NCBI GenBank assembly: GCA_036556805.1
Contig: DATBIS010000005.1
Location: 7,782-71,781 of the forward strand
Source: Actinomycetota bacterium
GTDB taxonomy: Bacteria; Actinomycetota; UBA4738; HRBIN12
DNA: 64,000 nt
Reading direction: 5' to 3'
Shown: piece after piece, positions 13,968 to 54,409 of the stretch
How the letters are laid out: the number at the start of each line of letters is the position of its first letter
Position numbering within the stretch: the first letter of the stretch is position 1
Translations under genes and position numbers: made by a program
The notes under the pieces: generated by a model
The model's database searches: none
The model's input: the letters and a program-made list of their open reading frames with translations, nothing else
What the model was told of the DNA's origin: nothing

Positions 13968-13971
<4 letters not shown>
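12865..13971 (+). CDS. Sensor histidine kinase (PAS plus HisKA_3 plus HATPase_c), no cognate response regulator adjacent
   Basis: PAS-like block (VYVDDPDE...WIDKIHPDD...YRMVTRDEHVVWIRD), H-box ERRRIAADIHDDSIQ and a C-terminal ATPase domain. GTG 12865 overlaps the M20 stop (GTGA). Confidence 0.85.
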
Positions 13972-15149
<1,178 letters not shown>

Positions 15150-15150
15150 G

Positions 15151-16176: not shown

Positions 16177-16823
16177 GGGAGTGCCTCCTCGGGAAGCTCG
16201 TCGAGCCGGACGAATCGGAACCCGTCGGCGCGAAGCCCGTCCACGATCGGCGGGACGGCGCCGTGGGTCCCGTCCGGCCAGGTGTGGAGCAGCACGACGG
16301 CTCCGTCGCCGTGCGCACGCACGCCCTCGATCGCGTCACGGGAGATCGCGGCGGCGTCGCGCCACGGCTCCCAGTCCTCGAGCGCCACGTCCCAATGCAC
16401 GTCGCGATAGCCGAGCTCGGCAAGCGGGCCTTGGACTCGCTCGTCGCCGTGACCGTCGCCGAACGGGCACCGGAACCAGGGTTTCGGATCGGTGCCGATG
16501 ATGTCGTAGATCGCCTCTGCCGCCTCACGAACGTCGGTTCGCAGGCCCTCGTCGGTGAACAGCGTCATGCGCGCGTGGTACTTGGAGTGGTTGCCGACGA
16601 GATGTCCGTCGACGGCGATCCGGCGGGCGGTCTCCGGCTGGGATTCCGCCCACCGCCCCTGCACGAAGAAGGTTGCGGCGACCCCCCGTTCGGCGAGGTG
16701 ATCCAGGATGCGCTCGGCGTTCTCGCTCGAGCGCCACGGGCGATCCGGATGCTCCGCGTCGAACGTCAGCGCGACGCGAGGGGCGGTCGGGAATGGGTCA
16801 GGAAAGTTTCCTAACGATTTCAC
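16173..16823 (-). CDS. Polysaccharide deacetylase (NodB homology domain, CE4)
   Basis: ALTFDAEHP (TFDD-like motif 1), GNHSKYH (motif 2) and RCPFG (motif 3). GTG start at 16823. Codons 3-8 coincide with operator box 1. Confidence 0.85.
   Translation of the reverse strand: MKSLGNFPDPFPTAPRVALTFDAEHPDRPWRSSENAERILDHLAERGVAATFFVQGRWAESQPETARRIAVDGHLVGNHSKYHARMTLFTDEGLRTDVREAAEAIYDIIGTDPKPWFRCPFGDGHGDERVQGPLAELGYRDVHWDVALEDWEPWRDAAAISRDAIEGVRAHGDGAVVLLHTWPDGTHGAVPPIVDGLRADGFRFVRLDELPEEALP
16798..16814. promoter_or_regulatory. Operator box 1: TCAGGAAAGTTTCCTAA (palindrome AGGAAA-S-TTTCCT)
   Basis: One of three near-identical 17-bp palindromes in the window. It lies at the 5' end of the CE4 operon and over the -35 region of the divergent GH4 gene. 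Confidence 0.7.
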
Positions 16824-16849: not shown

Positions 16850-18115
16850 ATGGGTGTGAAGGTTGCCGTCGTCGGAGGCGGGAGCACCTACACCCCCGAG
16901 CTCGTCGAGGGGTTCGTGACCCGTGGCGACCGGCTCCCCGTGGACGAGCTCGTGCTGCTCGACGTCGACCCCGACCGCCTCGCGGTGGTAGGGGCTCTCG
17001 CCGAGCGCATGGTGCGGAAGGCCGGCTGGCCGGGAGCGATCCGGCTCACGCAGAGCCGGGACGAGGCGCTCGAGGGCGCTGACTTCGTGATCGTGCAGCT
17101 CCGGGTGGGCGGCCAGGCGGCGCGCCTCACGGACGAGACGATCCCACCGTCGTACGGCTGCATCGGCCAGGAGACGACCGGCCCGGGGGGCTTCGCGAAG
17201 GCGCTGCGGACGGTGCCCGTCGTGCTCGAGCTCGCGCGCGAGACCTCGCGCCTCGGCGCCCCGGGCGCGTGGTTCGTCGACTTCACGAACCCGACCGGGC
17301 TGGTCACACAGGCGCTGCTCGACGAGGGGCACCGGGCGATCGGCCTCTGCAACGTCGCGATCGGGTTCCAGCGCAGGTTCGCGGCGCATTTCGGCGTCGC
17401 GCCGGACCGGGTGCGACTCGACCACGTCGGCCTCAACCACCTCAGCTGGGAGCGGGCCGTGTTCGTGGAGGGCGTCGATCGCCTGGCGGAGCTGCTCGAG
17501 GCGGCCGCCGACCTGGTCGCCGACGAGGCCGATATGCCGGTGGAGCTGGTTCGCGCGCTCGGCGCGATCCCGAGCTCCTACCTGCACTACTACTACCTCA
17601 CCTCCGAGGTGCTCGAGCATCAGCGGTCGCATCCGTCGCGCGCCGAGGAGGTCATGAGGATCGAGGCCGAGCTGCTCGAGCTCTACCGGGACCCCGAGCT
17701 CGACGTGAAGCCGAAGCTGCTCGAGGAGCGCGGCGGCGCCTTCTACTCCGACGCGGCGGCCGCGCTCGTCGCCTCGCTCCACGCCGGCACCGGCGACGTC
17801 CAGGTCGTGAACGTCCGCAACGTCGGCGCGATCCCGAACCTCCCAGCGGACGACGTCGTGGAGGTTTCCGCGACGATCGACCGAGACGGCGCGCACCCGA
17901 TCGCGACCGCACCGCTCGCCCCCGAGATGCTCGGGCTCGTGCAGCACGCGAAGGCGTACGAGCTCCTCGCGATCGAGGCGGCGACGACCGGGAACCGCAC
18001 CACCGCGCTCAAGGCCCTCATGGCGAACCCGCTCGTGGGCGACTACCGCGTCGCGGCACCGCTGCTCGACGCGCTGCTCGACGCGAACCGCGAGCTGCTG
18101 CCGCAGTTCGCCTGA
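16850..18115 (+). CDS. GH4 NAD/Mn-dependent glycosidase (6-phospho-beta-glucosidase-like, CelF/ChbF type)
   Basis: N-terminal KVAVVGGGSTYTPELVEGF Rossmann signature of family 4 glycoside hydrolases. 421 aa. TACGAT hexamer ends 9 nt upstream of the ATG. Confidence 0.9.
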   Translation: MGVKVAVVGGGSTYTPELVEGFVTRGDRLPVDELVLLDVDPDRLAVVGALAERMVRKAGWPGAIRLTQSRDEALEGADFVIVQLRVGGQAARLTDETIPPSYGCIGQETTGPGGFAKALRTVPVVLELARETSRLGAPGAWFVDFTNPTGLVTQALLDEGHRAIGLCNVAIGFQRRFAAHFGVAPDRVRLDHVGLNHLSWERAVFVEGVDRLAELLEAAADLVADEADMPVELVRALGAIPSSYLHYYYLTSEVLEHQRSHPSRAEEVMRIEAELLELYRDPELDVKPKLLEERGGAFYSDAAAALVASLHAGTGDVQVVNVRNVGAIPNLPADDVVEVSATIDRDGAHPIATAPLAPEMLGLVQHAKAYELLAIEAATTGNRTTALKALMANPLVGDYRVAAPLLDALLDANRELLPQFA

Positions 18116-18127: not shown

Positions 18128-19363
18128 TCAGCCCTCCGGCAGCTCCGACGCGTGGCGCTGGATCTTCGCGAGGGCCTCGACCGCGTCCTGGACCCCGGCG
18201 TTCCCGTCCCGGAAGACGTTCTCCATGAAGTACACCGACTCGCGAAGGCCCGCGGCCTCGGCGACGGGGAACGACATCGATGCGGGGTCGAGCCGGTCGG
18301 CGAACTCGACGGCCACGGGGAGCCGGGAGAGCGACGGCTGGAACAGCTCGTATCGGCTCATCGGTGGGTACTGGACCTCCGCGGGGATCCCCTCGGCCTC
18401 CATCGCCGCGCAGACGACCTCGTTGGTTCGGCCGGCGAAGGCGTCGGGGTCGATCGCGATGAGGTAGTTGTAGAAGCTCCACCGCGTGATGCGCTCGTCG
18501 GCGGGCATCACGCGAACCCCGGGAACCTCGGCGACGAGCCGTTCGAACGCCTTGCCGGCGACCGCGCGCTCCTCTTGCTGTGCGGGGAACCGTCGCATCG
18601 CCACGACGAGGAGCGCGGCGTGCAGCTCGCTCAGGCGGTAGTTCGCGCCGAACGTGACCTCTTTCTCGTCGGGATCCTTCGGGCGGCCGCAGTCGATGAT
18701 CGAGTGTGCGCGCCTCGCGAGCGCCTCGTCGTTCGTGAGCAGCGAACCGCCCTCGCCGGCGGTGAGGATCTTCGAGGATTGGTGGCTGAAGGACCCGAAG
18801 CTCCCGATGCAGCCCGCGCCGCGGCCGCGCCACTGCTGGCCGTGCGCGTGCGCGCAGTCCTCGACGATCGCGAGGCCGTGGCGCTCGGCGATCTCGGTGA
18901 GGCGATCCATGTCCGCCATCTGGTGGCCGAGGTGCACGGGCAGGATCGCCTTCGTCCGCGGCGTGATCGCGCCTTCGACGAGGTCGGGGTCGATCGTCCA
19001 CGTGCGTGGCTCGACGTCCACGATGACGGGAAGCGCGCCGGCGGCCATCGGCGCGTACGCCGTCGCGCTGAACGTGAGCGCGGGGATGACGACCTCGTCG
19101 CCCCAGCCGATGTCGAGCGCCTTGAGCGCCACCTCCATCGTCACGGTGCCGTTCATCATCAGCACGCCGTGACGGGCACCCTGGTAGGCCGCGAACGCTT
19201 CCTCGAACGCGGCACCGTTGCGGCCGGGCTCCGGGAACCCGCCCCATGCACCGCTCCGCACGACCTCGCCGACCGCCGCGACGTACTCGTCGTCGGGCGA
19301 AGGCCACGCCGGGTACGGGGTGCCGCGAACGGGCGCCCCGCCGTTGATCGCGAGCTCCGCCAT
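18128..19363 (-). CDS. DegT/DnrJ/EryC1/StrS-family PLP aminotransferase
   Basis: Family blocks (MMNGTVTMEVALKAL, VIPALTFSAT, ILPVHLGHQMADM, SFSHQSSKILTAGEGG with the PLP lysine). ATG 19363 is preceded by GGAAGGAG. Confidence 0.85.
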   Translation of the reverse strand: MAELAINGGAPVRGTPYPAWPSPDDEYVAAVGEVVRSGAWGGFPEPGRNGAAFEEAFAAYQGARHGVLMMNGTVTMEVALKALDIGWGDEVVIPALTFSATAYAPMAAGALPVIVDVEPRTWTIDPDLVEGAITPRTKAILPVHLGHQMADMDRLTEIAERHGLAIVEDCAHAHGQQWRGRGAGCIGSFGSFSHQSSKILTAGEGGSLLTNDEALARRAHSIIDCGRPKDPDEKEVTFGANYRLSELHAALLVVAMRRFPAQQEERAVAGKAFERLVAEVPGVRVMPADERITRWSFYNYLIAIDPDAFAGRTNEVVCAAMEAEGIPAEVQYPPMSRYELFQPSLSRLPVAVEFADRLDPASMSFPVAEAAGLRESVYFMENVFRDGNAGVQDAVEALAKIQRHASELPEG

Positions 19364-19457: not shown

Positions 19458-20732
19458 CTGATCCTCGACCTCACGCCGGCACACGACGTCAGGATCGACG
19501 CGGGGACGAAGGGTTTTCCGGCGCTCACCGGATCGGTTCGCGCGGTGGACGTCGCCGCGGCGGGCTGGTCGCTCCCTCGCGACCTGCGCGCGCCGGTGAT
19601 GACCCTGCGCGCGACGGCGCTCGACCACAACCTCGCGCTCATGGCGTCGTTCTGTCGCAACCACGACGTGGACCTCGTTCCGCACGGTAAGACGACGATG
19701 GCGCCGCAGCTCTGGGACCGACAGCTCGAGGCGGGGGCCTGGGGGATCACGGCCGCCACCGTCGCGCAGGCGGCAGTCATGCGCTCGGTGAGGGTGCCGC
19801 GGATCCTGCTCGCGAACGAGCTCGTGGACGGCCCCTCGATCGACTGGGTCGCAGCACAGCTCGGAGACCCGGACTTCGACTTCGTGTGCTACGTGGACTC
19901 GCTGCGCGGCGTCGCGATCCTCGAGGAGCGCTTGGGCGCGGCCGGCGCGCCGAGGCCGCTGGGCGTGCTCGTCGAGATCGGCCACGAGGGCGGCCGCACG
20001 GGTTGCCGGACGGTGGACGCCGCGCTCGAGGTCGCGGGGGCGGTCGCGGCGAGCAAGCGTCTCGAGCTCGCCGGCGCCGCAGGCTACGAGGGGACGATCG
20101 GCGAGGGTCGCTCCCTCGACGCGATGACGGCCGTGAGCGCGTTCGTCGATCGGCTCGGCGAACTCGCGAGGGGCCTGCTCGAACGCGGCGCGGTCCGCGA
20201 CGGAGCGATCGTGAGCGCGGGTGGCAGCGTGTTCTTCGACGTCGTCGCCGACCGGCTGCGTGAGGCGCTTCCCGAGGGATCCGGCGCGCGCATCGCGTTG
20301 CGATCGGGCTGCTACCTCACGCACGACCACGGGACGTACGAGCGCAACTCGCCGTTCTCCGGACGCGCGGATCCCGCGCTGCGATTCCATCCCGCGATCG
20401 AGCTCTGGGGGAGGGTGCTCTCCCGACCCGAGCCGTCGCTCGCGCTGCTCGGCTTCGGGCGGCGCGACGCCCCCTTCGACACCGGGATGCCTGTGCCCCT
20501 GTCGATCCACTCGCCGTCGGGCGATCCGACACGGGCCGCGCGCGGGATCGAGGTGGAGCGCCTGAACGACCAGCACGCGTTCTGCCGAGTCGACCCGAAG
20601 ACGCCGCTCGAGGTCGGAGAGCTCGTGGCGTGCGGGATCTCGCACCCGTGCACGGCGTTCGACAAATGGCGCGTGCTGCCGGTCGTCGACGACCACCTGC
20701 GCGTGGTCGACGCCGTCGCGACGTTCTTCTAG
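19458..20732 (+). CDS. D-serine-dehydratase-like PLP enzyme (alanine racemase N-terminal fold, DSD1 type 'amino acid deaminase')
   Basis: PHGKTTMAP (PLP-lysine motif) and C-terminal GISHPCTAFDKW block. GGAGGAG (19446-19452) plus a 5-nt spacer precedes in-frame CTG 19458. The alternative canonical GTG at 19407 has no SD. Confidence 0.75.
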   Translation: MILDLTPAHDVRIDAGTKGFPALTGSVRAVDVAAAGWSLPRDLRAPVMTLRATALDHNLALMASFCRNHDVDLVPHGKTTMAPQLWDRQLEAGAWGITAATVAQAAVMRSVRVPRILLANELVDGPSIDWVAAQLGDPDFDFVCYVDSLRGVAILEERLGAAGAPRPLGVLVEIGHEGGRTGCRTVDAALEVAGAVAASKRLELAGAAGYEGTIGEGRSLDAMTAVSAFVDRLGELARGLLERGAVRDGAIVSAGGSVFFDVVADRLREALPEGSGARIALRSGCYLTHDHGTYERNSPFSGRADPALRFHPAIELWGRVLSRPEPSLALLGFGRRDAPFDTGMPVPLSIHSPSGDPTRAARGIEVERLNDQHAFCRVDPKTPLEVGELVACGISHPCTAFDKWRVLPVVDDHLRVVDAVATFF

Positions 20733-21616
20733 CGTTTCGGGAAGCCCTCGGTGTCGCCCACGGTCGTGGCGACCGCCGCACCGCACCGCGCGCCCTCGGC
20801 GAGCGCTGTCGCCGGGTCCGCGCCCGAGAGACGGGCGGCGAGATAGCCGGCGTTGAACGCGTCGCCGGCGCCGACGGGGTCGACGTCCGCGCGAGGCTCG
20901 CCCTCGAGCTCGTGCCAGCCGCCGCGCTCGTCGAGCGCGGCGGCGCCCCGAGGCCCGCGCTTCACCACCACCTCACGGGGACCGCTCGCGCGGCAACGCC
21001 GCGCGAGCTCCTCCGCCGAACCCGGCCCCACGAGCGCGGCGAGCTCCCGCTCGCCCGCCAGCACCAGCGTGGCGCGTTCGACCAACGGAAGCACGAGCTC
21101 GGGCGCGCGATCCGAACCCCAGAGCCCCGCCCGGAGGTTCGGATCGACCGCGCGGACGCCGCCGGCGCGTTCGAGCAGCGAGATCGCCGCACGCCCCGGA
21201 CCGTCGCCGATCAGCGCCGTGATGCCGGTCACGAGCACGGCGCGGGCGTCCTCGACCGGCACACCGTCCAGATCCTTGGGCGACAGCGCGCTCGCGGCCG
21301 ACGCCAAGCGGTAGTAGACGACCGCGCCGGTCGTGTCGCGGAGCATGAGGCCGGTCGGGCGGCCCGGGTCCCGCGTCACCCAGCGGACGTCGACGCCCTC
21401 GCGCTCGAGCGCGGCGGCCACGCGTTCGCCCGGGACGTCGGCGCCCAGCCTGCTCACCCAGGCCGTACGCAATCCCAAGCGGGCGAAGCCGACGCACGCA
21501 TTGCTCTCCGCGCCGCCGTGCGTCACGTGAAGCGAGCCGGCGCCCGCGAGCGTTCCCTCGGCGACGAGCGAGAGCATCGTCTCGCCGACCGCGACGAGGT
21601 CGAAGCGCGCGCTCAC
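20729..21616 (-). CDS. kdgK: PfkB-family sugar kinase, 2-dehydro-3-deoxygluconokinase-like
   Basis: GGAESN and C-terminal DPVGAGDAFNAGY PfkB signatures. GTG start overlaps the eda stop (GTGA). Confidence 0.8.
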   Translation of the reverse strand: MSARFDLVAVGETMLSLVAEGTLAGAGSLHVTHGGAESNACVGFARLGLRTAWVSRLGADVPGERVAAALEREGVDVRWVTRDPGRPTGLMLRDTTGAVVYYRLASAASALSPKDLDGVPVEDARAVLVTGITALIGDGPGRAAISLLERAGGVRAVDPNLRAGLWGSDRAPELVLPLVERATLVLAGERELAALVGPGSAEELARRCRASGPREVVVKRGPRGAAALDERGGWHELEGEPRADVDPVGAGDAFNAGYLAARLSGADPATALAEGARCGAAVATTVGDTEGFPKR

Positions 21617-22227
21617 GGCGAGGCGGCGACGCGCGCGACGGCGGCGGCGCGCGCCGCGACGCGCTTCAGCTCGCCGTCTCCGTGCGGCGGCGTCCGGCCC
21701 ACCAGCTCGCCGCCCAGCCCCACGCAGGTGGCCCCGGCCTCGAGGTAGCCCTGCACCTCCTTGATCGCGATGCCTCCCGTCGGCACGAACGGCGTCGTGG
21801 GGAACGGTCCGCGCAACGCGCGCACGTATGCGGGGCCTCCCGTCGAGGCGGGGAAGAGCTTCACGGCCTTCACGCCCAGCGCGAGCGCCCGGAGGATCTC
21901 GGTGGCGGTGAACGCGCCGGCGATCGGCTCCAGCCCGCGGTCCAGCGCCTCGGCGATCACCTCGTCGACGGTTCCGGGGGTCACGACGAACCGGGCTCCG
22001 GCGTCGGCGCAGGCGCGCACCTGCTCGGCGGTGACCACGGTGCCCACGCCGACCGTTCGCCCCTTCGCGGCCGACCTCTCGACCGCATCGAGGGCGCCCG
22101 GGGTGTCGATCGTGACCTCGGAAAGACCGATCCCGCCCGCGTCGAGCGCATCGAGGGTCGCTTCGACGTCCCCCTCGGAACGGAACCGAACGATCGCGAG
22201 CACGCGGGACGATTCGATCACCGACAT
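21613..22227 (-). CDS. eda: KDPG/KHG aldolase
   Basis: Typical Eda length (204 aa) and blocks (VLAIVR, GIGLSEVT, GAGTV-like GVGTVV, KLFPA with the Schiff-base lysine, PTGGI). Confidence 0.85.
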   Translation of the reverse strand: MSVIESSRVLAIVRFRSEGDVEATLDALDAGGIGLSEVTIDTPGALDAVERSAAKGRTVGVGTVVTAEQVRACADAGARFVVTPGTVDEVIAEALDRGLEPIAGAFTATEILRALALGVKAVKLFPASTGGPAYVRALRGPFPTTPFVPTGGIAIKEVQGYLEAGATCVGLGGELVGRTPPHGDGELKRVAARAAAVARVAASP

Positions 22228-22281
22228 CGCGCGCTCCCTTGACCCGGGCGGACGGCCCAGCGTAGCATCGCGCGAGTTCAG

Positions 22282-22298
22282 TTAGGAAACTTTCCTAT
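22282..22298. promoter_or_regulatory. Operator box 2: TTAGGAAACTTTCCTAT
   Basis: Second copy of the palindrome, in the eda / ROK divergent intergenic region. It starts 14 nt after a TAGCAT hexamer (22263-22268) and ends 8 nt before the SD GGGAGGG (22307-22313). Confidence 0.7.
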
Positions 22299-22383
22299 CA
22301 CGGATCGGGAGGGTGCGACGCCGACGGAACAGACGTTCGCCGCGGGGACGCCCAGCCTCCTTCGCGCGATCAACGAGCGGACC

Positions 22384-23523
22384 GTGCTCGAGTTCATCCG
22401 GCAGGTCGGTCCCGTCTCCCGCGCGCAGATCGCGAGGGACTCCGGACTCTCGAAGCCGACGGTCTCGCAGGCGCTCTCGGCGCTCGCGCGCGCGAAGCTC
22501 GTGCGCGAGGCCGGGCGATCGTCGGGCGGGAAGGGGCCCACCGCCGTGCTCTACGAGCTGAACCCGAGGGCCGGATGGGTGGTGGGCATCGACGTGGGCC
22601 GCGACCGCGTGCGCGCGGCGATCGCCGACCTCACCGGGGACTTCATCGCTCGCCGCGACGAGCGGGCGCGGGTGCGGAGCGCGGACACCCTCCTCGAGCA
22701 GATCGGAGAGATCTCCCACGGCCTCGCGGCCGAGGCGGGCATCCGCTGGCGGCAGGTCACCTCGGCGGCCGTCGCGAGCCCCGGAGTCCTGGAGCCCGCC
22801 CGAGGCAAGGTCTCGCTCGCTCACAACCTGCCGGGATGGGGGCGCCTCGGCCTCGTGGAGGCGCTGCGGAAGGAGCTCGGCACGGCACTCACGTTCGAGA
22901 ACGACGTGAACCTCGCGACGGTGGGCGAGCAGTGGCGCGGCCTCGGCAAAGACGTGCAGAACTTCGTGTTCCTGCACGTCGGGACCGGGGTGGGGATGGG
23001 GTTGGTGGTAAACGGCCGCCTGTTCCGGGGCGCGCACGGTGCGGCCGGCGAGGTCGGGTACCTGCCGCTCGCGACCGCCGACCCGCACGATCCCGAGAAC
23101 CTGCGTCACGGCGCCCTCGAGGGGGCGGTGGGAGCGGCCGGCGTGGTGGAGCTCGCTCGCTCGCTCGGCATGGAGGCCCCACTCACGCCGAGGAAGATCT
23201 TCCACGCCGCGCGAAAGGGCGATCCCATCCCCCGGAAGGTGGTCGACCTGGTCGCGGACCGGATCGCGCTCGGGATCGCCGCCGTGGTCCCCGTGGTCGA
23301 TCCCGAGCTCGTGATCCTCGGGGGAGGGATCGGACAGAACGGTGACCTCCTGCTCGAGCGGATCGAGCGCGAGCTGCAGACGCTCTCGCCCTTCCACCCC
23401 AGGATCGAGATTTCGGCGCTGGGTGAAGACGCGGAGCTGAACGGGGCCGTCGCCACCGCACTTCAGGAGGCCCAGGACCAGTTGTTCGCCCGCGCCGACG
23501 CGCGGGGAGGCATCGCCGTATGA
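22384..23523 (+). CDS. ROK-family transcriptional repressor (NagC/CsnR-like); N-terminus probably extends to about 22318
   Basis: wHTH (VSRAQIARDSGLSKPTVSQAL) plus a ROK sugar-kinase-like domain. 22384 is the first canonical start, but the conserved helix LLRAINERT is encoded in-frame upstream (see findings). Confidence 0.85.
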   Translation: MLEFIRQVGPVSRAQIARDSGLSKPTVSQALSALARAKLVREAGRSSGGKGPTAVLYELNPRAGWVVGIDVGRDRVRAAIADLTGDFIARRDERARVRSADTLLEQIGEISHGLAAEAGIRWRQVTSAAVASPGVLEPARGKVSLAHNLPGWGRLGLVEALRKELGTALTFENDVNLATVGEQWRGLGKDVQNFVFLHVGTGVGMGLVVNGRLFRGAHGAAGEVGYLPLATADPHDPENLRHGALEGAVGAAGVVELARSLGMEAPLTPRKIFHAARKGDPIPRKVVDLVADRIALGIAAVVPVVDPELVILGGGIGQNGDLLLERIERELQTLSPFHPRIEISALGEDAELNGAVATALQEAQDQLFARADARGGIAV

Positions 23524-23588
23524 CCCCGGCCACGTACACCCAAGGAGACCGGCATCGTCCCCGCGATCGGGAGAGGGAGGAACGGCAC

Positions 23589-24941
23589 ATGAAGCGATTG
23601 TTGGTGTCGACGCTCGTGTTCGCGCTCGCCGTGACCGCGTGCACCGCGGGTGGCAACACCTCGACCCCCGCCACCATCAACCCGAGCGAGTCGCACGAAC
23701 CGGTGACCCTCGAGATCTGGGGCGCCTGGTCGGGCCGCGAGCTCAAGCAGTTCAACCAGATCTTCGACGGGTTCACCGCCCAGTACCCGTGGATCACGGT
23801 GAACAGCACGGGCAGTGTGGGAGACCAGAAGATCATCGCTGGCATCAACAGCGGCACGCCGCCGGACGTGGTGCTCTCGTTCACGCCCGACCGGGTCGGC
23901 GCGTTCTGCGCGACCGGCGGTTGGCAGGACCTGATGCCGTATATGGACCAAACGGGCTTCGATCTCAGCCAGATCCCGGAGGGGGCGCTCGCGTACACGA
24001 GCTACGGCGGCAGCCAGTGCGCGCTGCCGTTCCTCACGGACACGTACGGCCTGTACTACAACATCGACATGTTGGAGAAGGCGGGCATCTCGGATCCTCC
24101 GAAGACGCTCTCCGAGCTGCAGGCCGATGCGAAGAAGCTCACCGTCATCAACTCGAGCGGCGAGATCGAGGTCGCGGGGTTCGTGCCCTGGTTCGGGTAC
24201 TACGAGTTCAGCCCGTTGAACATGTCCATCATGTTCGATGCCCCCTGGTACAACGCCGACGGGACCCAGTCGGCGGTCGGGACGGACCCCGCCTGGCAAA
24301 CGATGTTCGAGTGGCAGAAGCAGTTCATCGCGGACGTGTACGGCGATGGTGACTTCGCGACGGGGGCCGACCGGCTCCAGCGCTTCGTCGCCGGTGCGGG
24401 CGAGGAGTTCTCGACGGCGCACGACATGTACACCGGCCGGATCGCGATGAACCTCGACGGCGAATGGCGCACGGCGTTCATCGCGGACGAGAAGCCCGAC
24501 ATGAACTACGGGACGGCGCCGCTGCCGACGCCCGACGACCTCGCGAGCAACTACGGCATGGGCCCGATGTACGGCACGATCATCGGCATGCCCAAGGGCT
24601 CCCCGCACCCCGCCGAGGCGTGGCTGCTGCTCCAGTACATGGCGACGGACACGGATACGCTCGTGTACATGGCGAACAACGTGCGGAACGTGCCGACGAC
24701 GCTCGCGTCGCTCGACTCGCCAGACCTGGACGTGACGCCGCAGTTTCAGACGTTCCTGGACATCTTCACGAACCCGCTGTCGCGGGACAAGGAGCCGACG
24801 GCGATCGGGTCCGCCGACCAGGAGACGGTCTCGAGCTTCGCCGAGAAGTGGCAGACGAACGCGGACTCGGACCTCGCCGGCGGACTGCAGCAAGCCGCCA
24901 CGCAGATCGACGACCAGCTCGCCCAGCAGCAGGGACCATAG
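23589..24941 (+). CDS. ABC transporter solute-binding lipoprotein (family 1, oligosaccharide type)
   Basis: ATG 23589 follows GGGAGAGGGAGG. Signal peptide with lipobox LAVTAC. SBP_bac_1-like blocks (LEIWGAW, AGINSGTPPDV). Confidence 0.85.
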   Translation: MKRLLVSTLVFALAVTACTAGGNTSTPATINPSESHEPVTLEIWGAWSGRELKQFNQIFDGFTAQYPWITVNSTGSVGDQKIIAGINSGTPPDVVLSFTPDRVGAFCATGGWQDLMPYMDQTGFDLSQIPEGALAYTSYGGSQCALPFLTDTYGLYYNIDMLEKAGISDPPKTLSELQADAKKLTVINSSGEIEVAGFVPWFGYYEFSPLNMSIMFDAPWYNADGTQSAVGTDPAWQTMFEWQKQFIADVYGDGDFATGADRLQRFVAGAGEEFSTAHDMYTGRIAMNLDGEWRTAFIADEKPDMNYGTAPLPTPDDLASNYGMGPMYGTIIGMPKGSPHPAEAWLLLQYMATDTDTLVYMANNVRNVPTTLASLDSPDLDVTPQFQTFLDIFTNPLSRDKEPTAIGSADQETVSSFAEKWQTNADSDLAGGLQQAATQIDDQLAQQQGP

Positions 24942-25046
24942 GGAGGAGCCACGGCCGCATCGACCACGCAGATCACGCGGGCGCCCGTCGAGGTCGCCGC
25001 CATCCGGCGGCGGCCTCGCCGGCGCGACCCGAAGCACGCGCTCACC

Positions 25047-25952
25047 GTGCTGGCGTTCATGGCACCGTGGATCCTCGGGTTCCTGGGCCTGATCCTCTAC
25101 CCGATGCTCTCGAGCCTGTACTTCTCGTTCACGAGGTACTCGCTGCTCGACCAGCCCCAGTGGATCGGTCTGGACAACTACGTCTTCATGTTCACGAAGG
25201 ACCCGTACTTCTGGATCACGCTGCGGAACACGCTATGGATCATCGTGGTGGGCGTGCCGTCGAGGGTCGCGTTCGGCATCATCACCGCCTGGCTCCTCAC
25301 CCTCCCAAGGAAGGGCACGCGGACCTATCGCACGATGTACTTCATGCCCTCGATCGCGCCGCCAGCCGCGGCCGCGCTCGCGTTCGTCCTGGTCTTCCAG
25401 CCTGCGTTCGGGCCGGTGAACCAGATCCTTCGCGGACTCGGGATGCGTGAACCGCCGCTCTGGTTCTACGGACCGGGATCGTCGAAGTGGGGCCTGGTGC
25501 TGCTCGGTCTGTGGGGCATCGGGGACGCGATGATCATCTTCCTCGCCGGGCTCCTGAACGTGCCCCGCCAGCTCTATGAGGCGGCGGACATCGAGGGCGC
25601 GAACGGCCGGCAGAAGTTCCGCCACGTGACGCTCCCGATGATCTCGCCGGTGATCTTCTTCTCCACCGTGATCGGGATCATCTACGGCTTCCAGCTGTTC
25701 ACCCAGGCCTACGTCGCGAGCGTGGCGACGAGCGGCTCGTCGGTGACCGACGTGGCTTCGAACATCGGAAGCCCGCAGAACTCGATGCTGTTCTTCTCGG
25801 TGTACCTGTACAAGACCGGCTTCCAGGACTTCCGCATGGGGTACGCGTCGGCGCTCGCGTGGGTGCTCTTCGTGATCACGATGGTGTGCACCCTCACCAT
25901 CATCAAGGGCTCGCGGCGCTGGGTCTTCTATCAGGGGGGTGGCTTTCGATAG
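25047..25952 (+). CDS. ABC sugar permease (MalF/CUT1 type); start may be upstream at about 24951
   Basis: Six-TM BPD_transp_1 pattern with an EAA-like loop (YEAADIEGANGRQKF). GTG 25047 is the first canonical start, but the basic N-terminal segment is encoded in-frame upstream after an SD. Confidence 0.8.
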   Translation: MLAFMAPWILGFLGLILYPMLSSLYFSFTRYSLLDQPQWIGLDNYVFMFTKDPYFWITLRNTLWIIVVGVPSRVAFGIITAWLLTLPRKGTRTYRTMYFMPSIAPPAAAALAFVLVFQPAFGPVNQILRGLGMREPPLWFYGPGSSKWGLVLLGLWGIGDAMIIFLAGLLNVPRQLYEAADIEGANGRQKFRHVTLPMISPVIFFSTVIGIIYGFQLFTQAYVASVATSGSSVTDVASNIGSPQNSMLFFSVYLYKTGFQDFRMGYASALAWVLFVITMVCTLTIIKGSRRWVFYQGGGFR

Positions 25953-25984
25953 CGACGGCGACCGCGGCACCACCTGCAGCACGC

Positions 25985-26848
25985 GTGGCCGACATCACGC
26001 CACGTCCCGTCCCCGAGGTCGTGCGTCGCCGGCGCTTCCTCCTCGCGGTCGGGCGCCATGCCGTGCTCATCAGCGTGGCGGCGGCCTTCCTGGCGCCGTT
26101 CCTCTTCATCGTGTTCACGTCGCTCATGACCAGCCAGCAGGCCGTGACGCCGTCGTTTTGGCCACGACCGTTCCAGTGGTCGAACTACGTGGACGTGTTC
26201 CGCCGGATCCCATTCGTCACGTACTTCTGGAACACCACGCAGATCGCCGTGGGCGCGACGATCGGGGTCCTCGTGTCGTGCATCCCCGTGGCGTACGCCT
26301 TGTCGAGGATGCGCTGGCGCGGCCGCCAGTTCGCGTTCGTGCTGATCCTTTCGACGCTGATGCTGCCGTTCCAGGTGACGGTCGTGCCCCTGTACGTCAT
26401 CTGGGTGCGGCTCGGCCAGATCAACCACCTCACGCCGCTGATCCTCCCGGCGTTCCTCGGCGACGCCTTCTCGATCTTCCTGCTCCGGCAGTTCTTCCTC
26501 ACGATCCCGGAGGAGCTCTCCGACGCGGCTCGCGTCGACGGGGCGAGCGAATGGCAGATCATGACGCGCGTGATCGTGCCGCTCGCGAAGCCCGCGATCG
26601 CGGCCGTCGCGTTGTTCCAGTTCCTCTATTCGTGGAACGACCTCTTCGGGCCGCTGCTCTTCCTCGGCGGCAACCAGAAGCTGTGGACGCTCACGATCGG
26701 GCTGTCGGAGTTCCAGTCCCGGCACGGCGTCGAGTGGAACCTCACGATGGCGGCGTCGGTGCTCTTCATGCTGCCGATCATCGTGCTGTTCTTCCTGGCG
26801 CAGCGAGCGTTCATCGAGGGCGTCACCCTCACCGGCGTGAAGGGCTGA
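25985..26848 (+). CDS. ABC sugar permease (MalG/CUT1 type)
   Basis: EAA loop (SDAARVDGASEWQIMTRV) and six TM helices. GTG 25985 is the first start after the upstream stop. The listed ORF start 25859 overlaps the previous permease. Confidence 0.8.
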   Translation: MADITPRPVPEVVRRRRFLLAVGRHAVLISVAAAFLAPFLFIVFTSLMTSQQAVTPSFWPRPFQWSNYVDVFRRIPFVTYFWNTTQIAVGATIGVLVSCIPVAYALSRMRWRGRQFAFVLILSTLMLPFQVTVVPLYVIWVRLGQINHLTPLILPAFLGDAFSIFLLRQFFLTIPEELSDAARVDGASEWQIMTRVIVPLAKPAIAAVALFQFLYSWNDLFGPLLFLGGNQKLWTLTIGLSEFQSRHGVEWNLTMAASVLFMLPIIVLFFLAQRAFIEGVTLTGVKG

Positions 26849-26857
26849 CGCCCTCCC

Positions 26858-27814
26858 ATGTCGATCCGGGTCGCCCTGTTCGGGTGCGGGTGGATTCAGG
26901 ACTTCCACGCGCGCGGCGTGCGGGCGCACCCGGATGGCGAGCTCGTCGCGGTCGCGAACCACCGCGAGGAGACCGCGCACGCGTTCGCCGAACGACACGA
27001 GATCGAACGCGTGACGACGGACTGGCGGACGCTCGCCGCCGATCCCGCCGTGGACGCCGCGATCGTGGCGACGCCGAACGCCCTGCACGCACCCCAGGCC
27101 GTGGAGCTCCTGCGCGCCGGCAAGCACGTGCTGGTCGAGAAGCCGATGGCGACCTCGGTCGCCGAGTGCGACGCGATGATCCAGGCGGCCGCGGAGGGAT
27201 CGGCGTCGCTCATGGTCGCGCACTGCTGGCGCTTCCACGACGACGTCAGGGCTTTGGGGCGCCGGATCGAGGCCGGCGAGCTCGGCGAGATCGTGAAGAC
27301 CCGAGGGTACGGCGTGCACGTGGACTGGGGGCCCTCGGGATGGTTCGTCGATCGCGAGCTCGCGGGCGGCGGCGCACTCGTCGACATGGGGGTCCACGCG
27401 ATCGACACCGCGCGGTTCCTCCTGGGCGACCCGGTGCCGGAGCGGGTCTGCGCGGCGATCGGCACGCGCTACGCAGCCGGGCGGTACGAGGTCGACGACG
27501 ACGGGGTCGTGCTGATCACGTGGTCGAACGGGACGACCTCCCTCGTGGAGTGCGGGTGGTGGCAGCCGCACCGGGGCGGACCCGAGGCGGATACCGAGGT
27601 CTACGGCACGAGGGGCTACGATCGCGTCTGGCCCGCGGAGGCCCCCGCCGACGACGAGCTTGGGCTCCAGCCCATGTATTCGGCACAGGTGGGGGAGTTC
27701 CTCGACGCCGTCGGCGAGGGCCGGCGGCCGCGGCCTTCCGGCGAGGACGGGAGGATCGTGATGCAGGTGGTCGAGCGAGCGTATGCCTCCGCGCTCGAGG
27801 CGCACGCGACGTGA
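26858..27814 (+). CDS. Gfo/Idh/MocA-family NAD(P)-dependent oxidoreductase (or NAD-dependent glycosidase-like)
   Basis: N-terminal Rossmann VALFGCGWI and the EKP motif (VLVEKPMA). Confidence 0.85.
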   Translation: MSIRVALFGCGWIQDFHARGVRAHPDGELVAVANHREETAHAFAERHEIERVTTDWRTLAADPAVDAAIVATPNALHAPQAVELLRAGKHVLVEKPMATSVAECDAMIQAAAEGSASLMVAHCWRFHDDVRALGRRIEAGELGEIVKTRGYGVHVDWGPSGWFVDRELAGGGALVDMGVHAIDTARFLLGDPVPERVCAAIGTRYAAGRYEVDDDGVVLITWSNGTTSLVECGWWQPHRGGPEADTEVYGTRGYDRVWPAEAPADDELGLQPMYSAQVGEFLDAVGEGRRPRPSGEDGRIVMQVVERAYASALEAHAT

Positions 27815-28797
27815 GCGTCTTCCTCGGCGTCGACGGCGGTGGGACGAAGACGCACGCCGTGGTGGCGGACGGGGCTGGCACTCCCCTCGGGGTCGGCGTG
27901 AGCGGCGCGTCCAACTGGGAGGACGTGGGCCTGGACGGCGCCGTCGCCACGGTGGGCGCGGCGGTCGAGGAGGCCTTCGGGCAGGCGAACCTCGGCCCTT
28001 CGGATGCGACGGCGGCCGTCTTCGGCCTCGCCGGACTGGACTGGGAGAGCGATCGCCGGCGCCTCGCGATCGTCCCGGAGTCGCTCGGGCTTGCGTGCGA
28101 GTGGCTGACGGTGAACGACTCGTTCGTCGCGCTCCGCGCCGGCGCCAACCATCCGTGGGGGATCGTCGTGATCGCCGGCACCGGGGCCGTCGCCGCCGGC
28201 CGGGACCCCGATGGGCAGGAGTTTCGAACCCTCGGGCTCGGCCCGGTGTACGGCGACTACGGGAGCGCCTCGGAGATCGGAGAGGCGGCGATGCGCGCCG
28301 TGGCGGAGTGGTTCATCGGGCTCGGCGGCGCGACGGCGCTCACCGACGCCTTGTGCCTGCATGCTGGCGTCGACACCGCGCAAGAGCTCCTCGAACGCTA
28401 CAGCCGGAGCCAGGAGCCACTCGACCCGATCGCCCGCGTCGTGATGAAGGTCGCCGACGAGGGCGACCCGACTGCGAGGACCATCGCCGAGCGCGCCGGC
28501 GCCGGCCTGGGTGCTCGCGCGGCGCTCGTGGCGCGCAAGCTCTCGATGCAGCAGTTGCCCGTCGAGGTGGTGCTCGCAGGAGGAGTGTTCCGGAGCGCGA
28601 ACCGCGCGTTGATGGCCGCGTTCGAGATGGAGCTTCGCCGAACGGTGCCGCGCGCGGCGGTCTCGCGGCTGGAGGTCCCGCCGGTCGTCGGGGCCGTGCT
28701 GCGCGCGATGGAGCTCGTCGGCGTTGAGCCGCCCGGAGCCGTGCACCTGCACCTCTCGCTCGAGGTGATCAAGCACCTCGGCTACGAGTTCGCCTGA
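27811..28797 (+). CDS. BadF/BadG/BcrA/BcrD-type ATPase (N-acetylglucosamine-kinase-like sugar kinase), copy 2
   Basis: FLGVDGGGTKT phosphate-1 motif and AGTGAV, GGGVF motifs. GTG 27811 overlaps the upstream stop (GTGA). Only the last 328 codons of the 952-aa track ORF are credible. Confidence 0.8.
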   Translation: MSVFLGVDGGGTKTHAVVADGAGTPLGVGVSGASNWEDVGLDGAVATVGAAVEEAFGQANLGPSDATAAVFGLAGLDWESDRRRLAIVPESLGLACEWLTVNDSFVALRAGANHPWGIVVIAGTGAVAAGRDPDGQEFRTLGLGPVYGDYGSASEIGEAAMRAVAEWFIGLGGATALTDALCLHAGVDTAQELLERYSRSQEPLDPIARVVMKVADEGDPTARTIAERAGAGLGARAALVARKLSMQQLPVEVVLAGGVFRSANRALMAAFEMELRRTVPRAAVSRLEVPPVVGAVLRAMELVGVEPPGAVHLHLSLEVIKHLGYEFA

Positions 28798-28801: not shown

Positions 28802-29635
28802 TCAGACGCGCGACGCGGCCTCGGCCTGGCGGCCCAGGTAGCCCCAGACGAGCAGCACCTGGTAGAGCTCGCGGAGGTCGTCCGTCTCGTAGCGCAGGGT
28901 CCGCGCCGCGGGCCGTTCCGTTCGCGGCACGAGCATCCCCATGTCGACGATCGCCGTGCTCGCGTCCACCTCGAACGTGTAGGGCGGCGGCGGGCGGAAC
29001 GGCCGCAGCGTCCCCGCGCCGATCACGGCCTGTTCGGCGGCGCCCTTGATCACGGTGCGTGCCCACTCCGGGGAGAGCGATCGCGCGGACGTTCGCCCGA
29101 ACGCCTCCTTCACGGCGACGGTGCGCACGCCCGGAAGCGCGGCCTCGGCCTGCTGGCAGCACGCGCGGTCGCCCACCACCAGAGCGACCGGAACCCCGAA
29201 GCTTCCGGCGAGCGCCGCGTTCAGCAACGTCTCGTTCCACGAATCGCCGTTGACGCGCACGTCGGTGAAGAACCCCGCGTAGGTGTGGTCGAGGATCGCC
29301 TGGCTCGTGCCGGCTCCCGCGTGGTACCCGAGGAAGAGCGCGCAGTCCGTGCCGGTCTCGAGCCCGGTCATCATCGAGAACGGCACCTTCGGCGCGCCCT
29401 GCACGAGCTCGGCGCGCTGATCGAGCTTCTGCGGCAACAGGTTCCCCATGTCGCCGTGCGAGTCGCTCACCACCACCCGGGAGGCCCCCGCCTCGAAGGA
29501 ACCCGCGATCGCGGCGTTGGCCTCCTCGGTCATGATCTCGCGGGCCCACGCGTAGTCGTCGGTCCCGCGGGTCATCTGACGTGCCGACGTGAGGCCGGCG
29601 ATGCCTTCCATGTCGATCGAGATGAACACGTCCAT
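28802..29635 (-). CDS. M55 peptidase, DppA-like D-aminopeptidase
   Basis: N-terminal ISIDMEGIAG and SDSHG motifs characteristic of the DppA/M55 family. 277 aa. Confidence 0.8.
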   Translation of the reverse strand: MDVFISIDMEGIAGLTSARQMTRGTDDYAWAREIMTEEANAAIAGSFEAGASRVVVSDSHGDMGNLLPQKLDQRAELVQGAPKVPFSMMTGLETGTDCALFLGYHAGAGTSQAILDHTYAGFFTDVRVNGDSWNETLLNAALAGSFGVPVALVVGDRACCQQAEAALPGVRTVAVKEAFGRTSARSLSPEWARTVIKGAAEQAVIGAGTLRPFRPPPPYTFEVDASTAIVDMGMLVPRTERPAARTLRYETDDLRELYQVLLVWGYLGRQAEAASRV

Positions 29636-29800
29636 GGGTGACGAACTCTATACTTCTCGCGCTCATGACAACGGTCTAGCCGACAACCCCACGCGATCTC
29701 GCCGGACGGGCTCCCGTCCGGCTTCAGGTTCGGCGCGCTCGGTTGGGCCGTTCGCACGTTCCCCGCCGTCGCGCCCTGCAAGAAAGGACGCTCGACGCTC

Positions 29801-31075
29801 GTGGCTCGACGACTTCCCGCGCCGTTCGTGTACCTCCTGAGCGAGGCCCTCATCGGCTTCTTCTTCACGATGACCACGGTCGTGTTCTCGATCTACCTGA
29901 TCCGCGACGTCGGCCTCGACCCGCTTCAGCTCGTGCTGATGGGCACGGCGCTCGAGGCGACGTACTTCCTCTTCGAGGTGCCGACCGGCGTCGTCGCCGA
30001 CGTCGTGAGCCGCAAGGTCTCGATCGTGATCGGCCTGGTGCTCTCGGGGATCGCGTTCCTCGCGCTCGGCCTCGTGCGAAGCTTCGGTGCCGCCATCCTC
30101 ACGCAGCTCCTCTGGGGCTTCGGCGCGACGTTCACGAGCGGCGCCGACGTCGCGTGGATCACCGACGAGGTCGGTGAGGAGGCGGCTCGCCCCCTCTACC
30201 TCCGAGCGGGTCAGTACGGGAACCTGGGCGGGCTGCTCGGCATCGTCGTCGGGATCTCGCTCGCGACGGTCGCGCTCTCCATGCCGATCGTGATCTCCGG
30301 GATCGGGTTCGTCGCGCTCGGCCTGATGCTGGTCGTCGTCATGCCCGAAGAGCACTTCGTGAAGCCGGTCCGCTCGGAGGGTGAACGCATCCACCACTCG
30401 CTTCGGAAGACGCTCGGCGGCAGCGCGCGCGCGATCCGCGGCCATCCGGTGCTGTTCCTGATCCTCGTGGTTGCCGCGCTGCACGGGATGTCGACGGAGG
30501 GCTTCGACCGCCTCGCCGACTTCCACATCCTGCAGGACATCGGGCTCCCCTCGTTCTGGACGTTCGATCGCATCGTGTGGTTCGGCGTGATCGACGCCGG
30601 CGCGCTCCTGCTCGGCATCGCCGCCACCGAGGTCGTGAAGCGGAAGGTCGACCTCGAGCACGTGAACGGGGCGGCGCGAGCGCTGCTCGTCATCGACGTG
30701 GCGCTGATCGCGCTGGTGGCACTCTTCGGCCTGTCGGGTGCGTTCGGCCTGGCGCTCGCCGGGATCTGGCTCGTGGCCGGCCTTCGCACGGTTCGCGACT
30801 CCGTCTTCACGGCGTGGACCAACCGTGGGCTCGATGCGGGCACGCGAGCGACGATCAACTCGATCGTGGGGCAAGCCGACGCGATCGGCCAGACGGCGGG
30901 CGGGCCCGTGCTCGGAGTGATCGCGCGCGCGGCCTCGGTGCCCGCCGCGATCGTGGTATCGGGCCTCGTCCGGCTACCGGCGCTCGTGTTCTACGGCGTC
31001 GCGATCCGCCGCGGGACCGTCGGCGCCGTCCGGCCCGACGAGGTCGCCGACCTCGACGCGGCGGCCGAGAGCTGA
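29801..31075 (+). CDS. MFS transporter
   Basis: 12-TM pattern and 424 aa. Start (GTG 29801) is uncertain. Confidence 0.75.
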   Translation: MARRLPAPFVYLLSEALIGFFFTMTTVVFSIYLIRDVGLDPLQLVLMGTALEATYFLFEVPTGVVADVVSRKVSIVIGLVLSGIAFLALGLVRSFGAAILTQLLWGFGATFTSGADVAWITDEVGEEAARPLYLRAGQYGNLGGLLGIVVGISLATVALSMPIVISGIGFVALGLMLVVVMPEEHFVKPVRSEGERIHHSLRKTLGGSARAIRGHPVLFLILVVAALHGMSTEGFDRLADFHILQDIGLPSFWTFDRIVWFGVIDAGALLLGIAATEVVKRKVDLEHVNGAARALLVIDVALIALVALFGLSGAFGLALAGIWLVAGLRTVRDSVFTAWTNRGLDAGTRATINSIVGQADAIGQTAGGPVLGVIARAASVPAAIVVSGLVRLPALVFYGVAIRRGTVGAVRPDEVADLDAAAES

Positions 31076-54392: not shown

Positions 54393-54409
54393 ATAGGAAA
54401 CTTTCCTAA
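54393..54409. promoter_or_regulatory. Operator box 3: ATAGGAAACTTTCCTAA
   Basis: Third copy of the palindrome. On the minus strand it lies between a TACGAT hexamer (54433-54428) and the TTG start at 54391. Its AGGAAAG half could double as the SD. Confidence 0.7.

Follow-up and report, generated by a model that had tools for sequence, protein, structure and literature searches.

A predicted CsnR-type regulon of an uncultured soil actinobacterium for oligosaccharides of chitosan or glucosamine, with an accessory oxidoreductase and aminotransferase

In Streptomyces, the csnREFGHK cluster encodes a repressor, an ATP-binding cassette (ABC) transporter, a hydrolase of glycoside hydrolase family 4 (GH4; CsnH) and a putative saccharide kinase (CsnK) (PMC6097792, PMC5635096). 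A six-gene operon at positions 22282-28797 of a 64,000-nucleotide stretch (the window) of contig DATBIS010000005.1, from an Actinomycetota bacterium (assembly GCA_036556805.1; 2.56 Mb, 89% complete), was labelled csnR-E-F-G-H-K-like in the first-pass annotation. Its fifth and sixth genes encode a Gfo/Idh/MocA oxidoreductase (Gfo) and a BadF-type kinase (BadF2). Are these six genes the csn cluster of this organism, and what would an oxidoreductase do in it? The region is assigned to a CsnR-type regulon for oligosaccharides of chitosan or glucosamine, of which it forms the transporter arm. The first four genes are orthologues of csnR and csnEFG. Gfo and BadF2 are a lineage-restricted accessory, and Gfo is gained, lost and pseudogenised together with an aminotransferase of the DegT/DnrJ/EryC1 family (DegT). 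Taken jointly, a CsnR regulon and a Gfo/DegT accessory for deamination form the best overall explanation, in which moderate confidence is placed.

The csnR operon and the Streptomyces csn clusters

Because the G+C content of the window is about 70%, genes were called by the G+C content at third codon positions (GC3). The six called frames, all on the plus strand (22384-23523, 23520-24941, 25047-25952, 25859-26848, 26858-27814 and 27811-28797), have GC3 values of 0.89-0.93, compared with 0.53-0.79 in the overlapping alternative open reading frames. According to Pfam, they encode a ROK regulator with an N-terminal winged helix-turn-helix (wHTH), a solute-binding lipoprotein (SBP_bac_1/8), two CUT1 permeases (BPD_transp_1 in both), Gfo (N- and C-terminal GFO_IDH_MocA domains) and BadF2 (BcrAD_BadFG). 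GC3 and Pfam thus bear out the gene order of the first-pass annotation. The equivalog cut-offs of NCBIfam were reached by none of the six proteins. After correction of the start codons, the intergenic gaps are, in operon order, about 65 nt, at most 105 nt, at most 32 nt, 9 nt and -4 nt. The last value is the overlap, described earlier, of the Gfo stop with the BadF2 start, which read GTGA at 27811-27814.

The published consensus of the CsnR box is AGGAAANTTTCCT (PMC6097792). The window contains three perfect matches, where 0.34 matches would be expected even with up to two mismatches, and these three are the only perfect boxes in the whole assembly. The first, AGGAAACTTTCCT, is the operator that had been placed at the 5' end of the operon. 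Most related loci, and the Streptomyces loci too, have a box at the equivalent position in front of csnR. A sigma-70-like promoter (one site found, 0.3 expected) is located 15 nt upstream of it. The second box, AGGAAAGTTTCCT, at 16800, lies about 5 kb upstream of the csnR operon. It divides a minus-strand unit, made up of a carbohydrate esterase family 4 (CE4) deacetylase, a second BadF-type kinase (BadF1) and an ABC ATPase, from a plus-strand GH4 gene. Indeed, an MsiK-type ATPase in a box-controlled operon (13968-16823) had already been proposed, and the protein carries the ABC_tran and OB_MalK domains. The third box belongs to a GH9 gene. A one-mismatch box on another contig was judged to be a chance match, as it is GC-rich and has neither an AT-rich flank nor a relevant adjacent gene.

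The Streptomyces loci used for comparison were reached through the GH4 orthologue, by searching 400 genomes of the phylum with the window GH4. They include those of Streptomyces sp. NPDC058326 and NBC_00704, whose GH4 proteins are annotated as 6-phospho-beta-glucosidase. In six of the seven loci, a box is followed by genes for ROK, solute-binding protein, two permeases, GH4 and BadF-type kinase; the seventh has box, ROK, GH4 and kinase. For each of the six Streptomyces csn products, the best match in the genome falls on this contig. The window ROK is the reciprocal best hit of the box-associated Streptomyces ROK (36-38% identity; 213-224 bits versus 94-147 for the next paralogue). In the reverse search of three Streptomyces genomes with the window regulator, the box-associated ROK again scored best (188-216 bits versus 144-147 for the next paralogue). 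The solute-binding protein is the best match in the genome for CsnE (38% identity, 283 bits versus 70 for the next), permease 1 for CsnF (45%, 220 versus 152 bits) and permease 2 for CsnG (48%, 275 versus 172 bits).

The counterparts of csnH and csnK are found in the neighbouring divergon. The window GH4 is 54-56% identical to the product of the fifth gene of the Streptomyces clusters and is the best match of that protein in the genome. Its closest solved structures in the Protein Data Bank (PDB) are 6-phospho-beta-glucosidases (5e-114). The Streptomyces kinase is 44-49% identical to BadF1 (176-193 bits), versus 30-33% to BadF2 (48-66 bits), and the two window kinases share 31% identity. Since the Streptomyces GH4 and kinase best match the window GH4 and BadF1, the fifth and sixth genes of the operon are not CsnH and CsnK. 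Hence, the csnR-E-F-G-H-K label holds for R, E, F, G and the regulon, and the letters H and K have to be moved to the true orthologues in the divergon.

The system is a re-wired variant of the known CsnR regulon of Streptomyces and Kitasatospora (Dubeau 2011; Viens 2015; reviewed in PMC6097792). As in Streptomyces, the 13-bp operator consensus is identical, the ROK repressor gene comes first and the CsnEFG-type CUT1 importer genes follow. Furthermore, orthologues of the GH4 and the BadF-type kinase are box-controlled, and a secreted glycanase gene has its own box. In contrast, the window regulon is split, with the GH4 and the CsnK orthologue in a divergon together with the CE4 and a MalK-type ATPase of its own, whereas the Streptomyces loci examined have no close MalK-type gene inside the cluster. 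The genome holds further MalK-type paralogues of the window ATPase (46-52% identity), and because of these several paralogues the ATPase is seen as a subunit dedicated to the csn system and not as a shared MsiK. Other differences are the operon tail of a Gfo/Idh/MocA protein and a paralogous kinase, the addition of DegT and, in this genome, of a module resembling glucosaminate deaminase and 2-keto-3-deoxygluconate (KDG) metabolism, and a box-controlled secreted enzyme of family GH9, compared with the reported GH46, GH2, GH5 and GH75. The window proteins are only about 36-54% identical to those of Streptomyces.

ROK proteins from cultured Pseudonocardiales and other genera (Amycolatopsis, Kutzneria, Umezawaea, Rhodococcus rhodnii and others; loci L082-L106) are 46-51% identical to the window CsnR, and thus closer to it than Streptomyces CsnR is. 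These genera were rejected as csn references: the loci have no csn neighbours, and an upstream box, with one mismatch, occurs only in L085 and L098.

Co-inheritance of the oxidoreductase with a DegT aminotransferase

Soil metagenomes and metagenome-assembled genomes (MAGs) labelled Actinomycetota or Actinomycetes bacterium are the source of almost all close homologues of Gfo and of the regulator; for the regulator, the 120 homologues listed are 69-96% identical. The GTDB class of the source organism is small, with 293 genomes of 2-4 Mb and no Streptomyces among them. For the comparison, 11 loci of the same family and 80 named loci were annotated by tblastn with the window proteins.

The core of the island is kept in dozens of related MAGs and has two parts. 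One comprises the ATPase, BadF1 and CE4 on one strand, a box, and GH4 on the other strand; the other comprises a box followed by CsnR, the solute-binding protein and the two permeases. An intermediate arrangement exists in another lineage (L116), where solute-binding protein, permeases, GH4, BadF1 and ATPase form a single operon. Two accessory modules are added to this core. The first consists of DegT and Gfo, often followed by BadF2, with Gfo placed behind the transporter genes, at the 3' end of their operon. In relatives that have neither the second module nor a second GH4 at this position, DegT and csnR are divergently oriented and share one box. The second module consists of a D-serine-dehydratase-like (DSD-like) enzyme, a PfkB kinase and an aldolase (Eda) inserted beside the csnR box. 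The window carries both, and the second module has moved DegT away from the box.

Gfo and DegT are inherited together. Among 40 species-level loci with both flanks visible, 26 have both genes, 14 have neither and none is discordant (Fisher p = 4e-11, not corrected for phylogeny). At the level of whole genomes, both genes were detected in 11 of 41 relatives and neither in 29, DegT alone in none and Gfo alone in one, whose genome is 82% complete. Loss also affects the two together: in relative G005, both genes are split in two, DegT with in-frame stops, which suggests a joint decay of part of the island. In this locus (G005:C6; L026 5742-9214 and ~15300-16200), GH4 is fragmented as well as DegT and Gfo; CsnR, the solute-binding protein, the permeases and BadF2 look intact. 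BadF2 is an optional partner: of the 26 Gfo-positive loci that could be evaluated, it was detected in 13. Open frames of 614-645 amino acids in some relatives had raised the suspicion of a Gfo-BadF2 fusion, which was rejected because the two genes are in different frames.

Orthologues of Gfo (E <= 1e-55) were found only in its own family, a second family (66-69% identity) and a single distant genome; the Streptomyces genomes sampled yielded none. In that distant genome (G556; L131 9540-13623), a DegT-family gene, 40% identical to that of the window, is located directly upstream of the Gfo orthologue (54%). In addition, the apparent operon there includes a DJ-1/PfpI protein and an AraC regulator with a DJ-1/PfpI domain and lacks a sugar transporter. 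As the substrates of DJ-1/PfpI enzymes are 2-oxoaldehydes, these genes might hint at a keto-sugar intermediate, although they need not.

These distributions bear on two roles that had been suggested for Gfo. In the first, the six genes would be the full equivalent of csnR-E-F-G-H-K, with Gfo replacing CsnH as an NAD-dependent glycosidase of the GH109 or GH4 type that splits imported glucosamine (GlcN) oligomers, and with BadF2 as CsnK. Gfo and BadF2 do hold the operon positions of CsnH and CsnK, and NAD-dependent glycosidases with the Gfo fold (GH109) are known. However, the true orthologues of both proteins are nearby under their own box, and 14 of 40 related csn loci are devoid of Gfo and retain GH4, the family of Streptomyces CsnH (PMC6097792, PMC5635096). 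The 318-residue protein carries only generic GFO_IDH_MocA domains, and no GH109 structure is among the 60 PDB matches listed for it. A GH109-like role has no positive support, it leaves the strict linkage to DegT unaccounted for, and among the alternatives considered here it is held to be the least probable.

The second suggestion was a dehydrogenase acting at C1. Gfo would be a glucosamine (aldose) 1-dehydrogenase, glucosaminate would be turned into KDG by the DSD-like enzyme, and PfkB and 2-keto-3-deoxy-6-phosphogluconate (KDPG) aldolase would provide an exit of the Entner-Doudoroff type. The proximity of these three genes to the csnR box in the window is in favor of this proposal, and the chemistry of OngC and KdgK is established (PMC9537276). 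Moreover, an aldose-aldose oxidoreductase is the best PDB match of Gfo, with glucose-fructose oxidoreductases also among its near matches. The rest of the lineage speaks against it. DSD orthologues occur in only 4 of the 41 relatives, nine of the 12 Gfo-positive genomes lack one, and the DSD-PfkB-Eda module is found at loci without Gfo (L032, L037, L041 and L056). A general coupling of Gfo to DSD was rejected on these grounds. Gfo also carries a D-x3-H motif where the aligned aldose-aldose oxidoreductase has D-x3-Y, and it has an NADP(H)-type signature. Like the glycosidase idea, the C1 route does not explain the link to DegT, and the independence of Gfo from the glucosaminate-deaminase module weakens it further. 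It is attractive for this window alone, fails as a general role of Gfo, and is considered quite unlikely.

A possible transaminative route

The relatives of the two proteins give hints on the chemistry. Among PDB entries, DegT best matches L-glutamine:2-deoxy-scyllo-inosose aminotransferases (1e-68) and 3-amino-5-hydroxybenzoate (AHBA) synthase, with nucleotide-sugar aminotransferases less close. Its nearest relatives are thus aminotransferases whose cyclitol substrates carry no nucleotide. No characterised protein was found to be close to Gfo, whose PDB matches reach about 1e-30 at best. Its neighbours are the aldose-aldose oxidoreductase (best), 6jw6 (presumably KanD2), 1,5-anhydro-D-fructose reductase (AFR) and the C-glycoside 3-oxidoreductase DgpA. 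In alignments with AFR and DgpA, the catalytic motifs of these enzymes coincide with an EKP lysine (VEKP) and a D-x3-H motif (DMGVH) of Gfo. D-x3-H is common to Gfo and the AFR, 6jw6 and DgpA chains, and inositol dehydrogenases carry it as well. The best PDB matches of BadF2 are 2e2n, titled 'hexokinase' and presumably the broad-specificity enzyme of Sulfolobus tokodaii, and a kinase of N-acetylmuramic acid and N-acetylglucosamine (MurNAc/GlcNAc).

As for the cofactor, the stretch VAVANHRE after strand beta2 of Gfo shows a conservation of 90% or more across 120 orthologues. This stretch is without the acidic residue that specifies NAD and has His and Arg in its place. From general knowledge of Rossmann folds, this reads as a preference for NADP(H) and a reductive role. 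AFR is similar in this respect, its aligned chain also being without an acidic residue after strand beta2. AFR prefers NADPH and reduces glucosone to mannose. AFR and IolG, which are Gfo/Idh/MocA members acting on ring C2, share the EKP lysine and D-x3-H pair with Gfo. They differ in that the similarity of Gfo to them is only about 1e-29 and its NCBIfam equivalog scores are far below the cut-offs.

Could the substrate of the pair then be a cyclitol or an aminocyclitol (scyllo-inosamine or inosose, for example), and its place within the CsnR regulon be due to chance? The best NCBIfam match of Gfo, below its cut-off, is myo-inositol 2-dehydrogenase (2.5e-43), and the best structural matches of DegT are the 2-deoxy-scyllo-inosose aminotransferases mentioned above. 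Against this, all 26 loci with Gfo have it within the importer operon, DegT shares the csnR box in many loci, and no other iol genes or inositol transporter are nearby. A cyclitol substrate therefore appears very unlikely.

There are precedents for such a pair acting on sugars. Pairs of the GenD2/GenS2 type combine a sugar dehydrogenase and a pyridoxal 5'-phosphate (PLP)-dependent sugar aminotransferase as obligate partners, and most of them belong to the same two families as Gfo and DegT. At least GenD2/GenS2 use non-nucleotide substrates and work efficiently in vitro from amine to hydroxyl: with 2-oxoglutarate and NAD(P)H, they turn a 3''-amino into a 3''-hydroxyl group essentially quantitatively (PMC4340712). 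The established pairs serve biosynthesis and modify C3, whereas the window pair is part of a catabolic regulon for a 2-amino sugar, and the sequence similarity is remote.

Gfo and DegT could nevertheless act at C3 themselves and interconvert 3-hydroxy and 3-amino sugars, for instance to degrade a 3-amino sugar or to make a 2,3-diamino sugar from GlcN, for a purpose other than bulk GlcN catabolism. GenD2/GenS2 would be a precedent for this too, and NtdC/NtdA, RifL/RifK and KanD2/KanS2 are others. Sub-threshold NCBIfam matches of Gfo to UDP-GlcNAc 3-dehydrogenase, levoglucosan dehydrogenase and glycoside 3-dehydrogenases point in the same direction, as do DgpA and 6jw6 among its structural neighbours and the atypical second GH4 that adjoins DegT in several relatives. 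Yet chitosan has no 3-amino group. Furthermore, the operon that contains the module serves sugar import and catabolism and includes a monosaccharide kinase, the signature of the NADP(H) type favors reduction, and neither a glycosyltransferase nor an exporter accompanies the module. Action at C3 is therefore regarded as rather unlikely.

The site of action would most likely be C2, with GlcN converted to a 2-keto sugar and then to mannose or glucose. C2 would be the most economical site because the amine of chitosan sits there and enzymes of the AFR and IolG type act there. In the proposed pathway, GlcN oligomers freed outside the cell would be imported by CsnEFG and the ATPase, and CsnR would be relieved by (GlcN)2, as in Streptomyces. 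Inside the cell, BadF1 would phosphorylate the oligomers, CE4 would strip off any acetyl groups that remain, and GH4 would carry out the cleavage. DegT would transaminate the GlcN-derived sugar, which may be free, phosphorylated or part of a glycoside, to a keto sugar and pass the nitrogen to an amino acid, Gfo would reduce the keto group with NADP(H), and BadF2 would phosphorylate the resulting neutral hexose. DegT, Gfo and BadF2 may thus constitute an undescribed transaminative route from GlcN, or a GlcN residue, through a 2-keto sugar and mannose or glucose to hexose-6-phosphate. The amine would go to glutamate or another amino acid, with no release of ammonia by NagB, and abundant uncultured actinobacteria of soil would carry the module as a mobile addition to the CsnR regulon. 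This route is put forward tentatively, as a possibility.

Several observations weigh against it. To our knowledge, the Gfo/Idh/MocA-DegT pairs (NtdC/NtdA, RifL/RifK, KanD2/KanS2, GenD2/GenS2 and WbpB/WbpE) all act at C3 and are mostly biosynthetic, not enzymes of C2 catabolism. A second deamination route is not required, because the genome also has a NagB-like deaminase. A Gfo/DegT module that replaces NagB was considered and rejected, as no anticorrelation with NagB-like genes was seen in the relatives. BadF2 is missing from half of the Gfo-positive loci, the co-occurrence statistics carry no phylogenetic correction, and CsnR is only 36-38% identical to Streptomyces CsnR. Moreover, the co-regulation of DegT is unproven in the window, because the DSD-PfkB-Eda insertion cuts it off from the csnR box, and no box-like site with up to four mismatches was found in its new promoter region, between DegT and the DSD gene. 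A literature search for a transaminative GlcN or glucosone pathway returned nothing relevant.

Annotated features, related systems and significance

The coordinates of the features are collected in Table 1.

Table 1. Predicted features of the csn island in the window
Feature	Position	Strand	Basis or remark
Sigma-70-like promoter of csnR operon, TTGACC-18 nt-TAGCAT	22239-22268	+	Consensus scan, pattern match only
CsnR box AGGAAACTTTCCT	22284-22296		Operator of csnR operon, between divergent eda (-) and csnR (+); perfect consensus match
csnR orthologue, ROK repressor with N-terminal wHTH	22318-23523	+	Pfam ROK 4e-48 and HTH; start uncertain
CsnE orthologue, CUT1 solute-binding lipoprotein	23589-24941	+	SBP_bac_1/8; lipobox AVTAC after MKRLLVSTLVFAL
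CsnF orthologue, permease 1	25047-25952	+	BPD_transp_1
CsnG orthologue, permease 2	25985-26848	+	BPD_transp_1 with MalG/UgpE-like matches; start uncertain, within 25949-25985
Gfo/Idh/MocA oxidoreductase (Gfo), accessory gene	26858-27814	+	PF01408, PF22725, PF02894; 318 aa
BadF2, BadF/ASKHA monosaccharide-kinase-like, CsnK paralogue	27811-28797	+	PF01869; optional partner of Gfo
CsnR box AGGAAAGTTTCCT	16800-16812		Divergent CE4/GH4 control region; perfect match; position kept in relatives
GH4 glycosidase, CsnH orthologue, 6-phospho-beta-glucosidase subfamily	16850-18115	+	PF02056, PF11975
CE4 polysaccharide deacetylase, apparently cytoplasmic, ~216 aa	16173-16823	-	PF01522 8e-26
BadF1, BadF-type kinase, CsnK orthologue	15151-16176	-	PF01869; best match of Streptomyces kinase
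MalK/MsiK-type ABC ATPase	13968-15149	-	ABC_tran and OB_MalK
DegT/DnrJ/EryC1 aminotransferase	18128-19363	-	PF01041 1e-87, fold-type I PLP domain
DSD-PfkB-Eda accessory module	19518-22227		Pfam, NCBIfam
D-serine-dehydratase-like fold-type III PLP enzyme	19518-20732	+	Pfam/NCBIfam
PfkB kinase	20729-21616	-	Pfam/NCBIfam
KDPG aldolase (eda)	21613-22227	-	Divergent from csnR across shared box region
Third CsnR box	54395-54407		3 nt 5' of GH9 TTG start codon; perfect match
GH9 lipoprotein (CelD_N and GH9)	52415-54391	-	Pfam; TTG start with RR...LLAGAC lipoprotein signal

Some start codons call for comment. The first canonical start of csnR is GTG 22384, and the conserved N-terminus QTFAAGTPSLLRAINERT is encoded upstream of it, back to about 22318. 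Over this conserved stretch, no in-frame ATG, GTG or TTG was found upstream of 22384; an ACG at 22318 follows a GGGAGG Shine-Dalgarno sequence by 5 nt. The solute-binding protein most likely starts at ATG 23589 rather than at 23520, which gives MKRLLVSTLVFALAVTAC with the lipobox. Permease 1 probably starts upstream of its first canonical GTG, as a basic N-terminal tail is encoded in frame 5' of it (24942-25047). For DegT, the PF01041 match covers residues 48-393 of a 434-residue query that starts 23 residues upstream of the chosen ATG.

Four genes separate GH4 from csnR, namely those of DegT, the DSD-like enzyme, PfkB and KDPG aldolase. The DSD-PfkB-Eda module, present in only a subset of the related loci, would fit an OngC-type route from glucosaminate to KDG and KDPG. 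In some relatives, the space between DegT and the csnR box is instead occupied by a second, divergent GH4 gene, whose product is 34-38% identical to the window GH4 (L017 9650-10921, L018 6859-8136, L021 1833-3113 and others); the window has no such gene there. Elsewhere in the assembly, the NagB-like gene is located on contig C100 (4687-5767; 148 bits against an equivalog cut-off of 237). A third GH4 gene follows it directly and ends at the end of the contig.

In the transporter operon of two relatives (G009, at L019 11610-15203, and G018, at L020), the genes for permease 2 and Gfo are separated by those for a GH35-like protein of 723 residues and a GH1 enzyme, with another Gfo/Idh/MocA gene further downstream. 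In the window, the operon ends 4 nt before a convergent gene for an M55 D-aminopeptidase (DppA-like), next to which lies a TetA(P)-like gene of the major facilitator superfamily (28802-31075). Both recur at the 3' end of the operon in relatives.

In most relatives, CE4 is the first gene of the CE4-BadF1-ATPase unit. The ATPase gene is adjoined, on the opposite strand and convergently, by an orphan PAS/HisKA_3 histidine kinase gene (12802-13971). This neighbourhood is kept in many relatives (HK_PAS hits in L018, L019, L023, L030, L034, L038 and others), and the kinase might be part of the system's regulation. The GH9 lipoprotein is a candidate for the extracellular chitosan-active enzyme of the regulon, judging from its domains and box. 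In relative L065, its orthologue adjoins the csnR box on the strand opposite to csnR. A PDB search with the GH9 protein gave no match at 1e-30.

Two further systems are comparable to parts of the island. The chb operon of E. coli encodes the deacetylase ChbG and the GH4 phospho-beta-glucosidase ChbF. As in the window, a deacetylase is thus paired with a GH4 enzyme of the 6-phospho-beta-glucosidase type for the cytoplasmic processing of chito-oligosaccharides. In contrast, the window has ABC import and a BadF kinase instead of a phosphotransferase system, a CE4 instead of a YdjC-family deacetylase, and a ROK repressor. The ong pathway of Pseudoalteromonas for oxidised chitin (OngC-KdgK; PMC9537276) also relies on a fold-type III PLP-dependent DSD-like enzyme and a PfkB kinase, to which the window adds KDPG aldolase for the expected next step. 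The likeness is one of enzyme class, and the window module is outside the reported operon and is an insertion in a minority of the relatives.

Chitosan and other glucosamine polymers are large pools of carbon and nitrogen in soil. Little is known of what happens to them inside the cell once they are taken up, even in Streptomyces, whose CsnH and CsnK are biochemically uncharacterised. The CsnR operator and regulon reach a deeply divergent and abundant lineage of uncultured actinobacteria, with the 13-bp box unchanged. In this lineage the regulon is re-wired, with a split divergon, an ATPase of its own, a CE4 deacetylase and a GH9 target. The comparison also corrects the orthology of the operon, whose Gfo/Idh/MocA enzyme would otherwise be mislabelled as CsnH. 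Finally, the tightly co-inherited pair of aminotransferase and oxidoreductase is a testable candidate for a new step of amino-sugar deamination.

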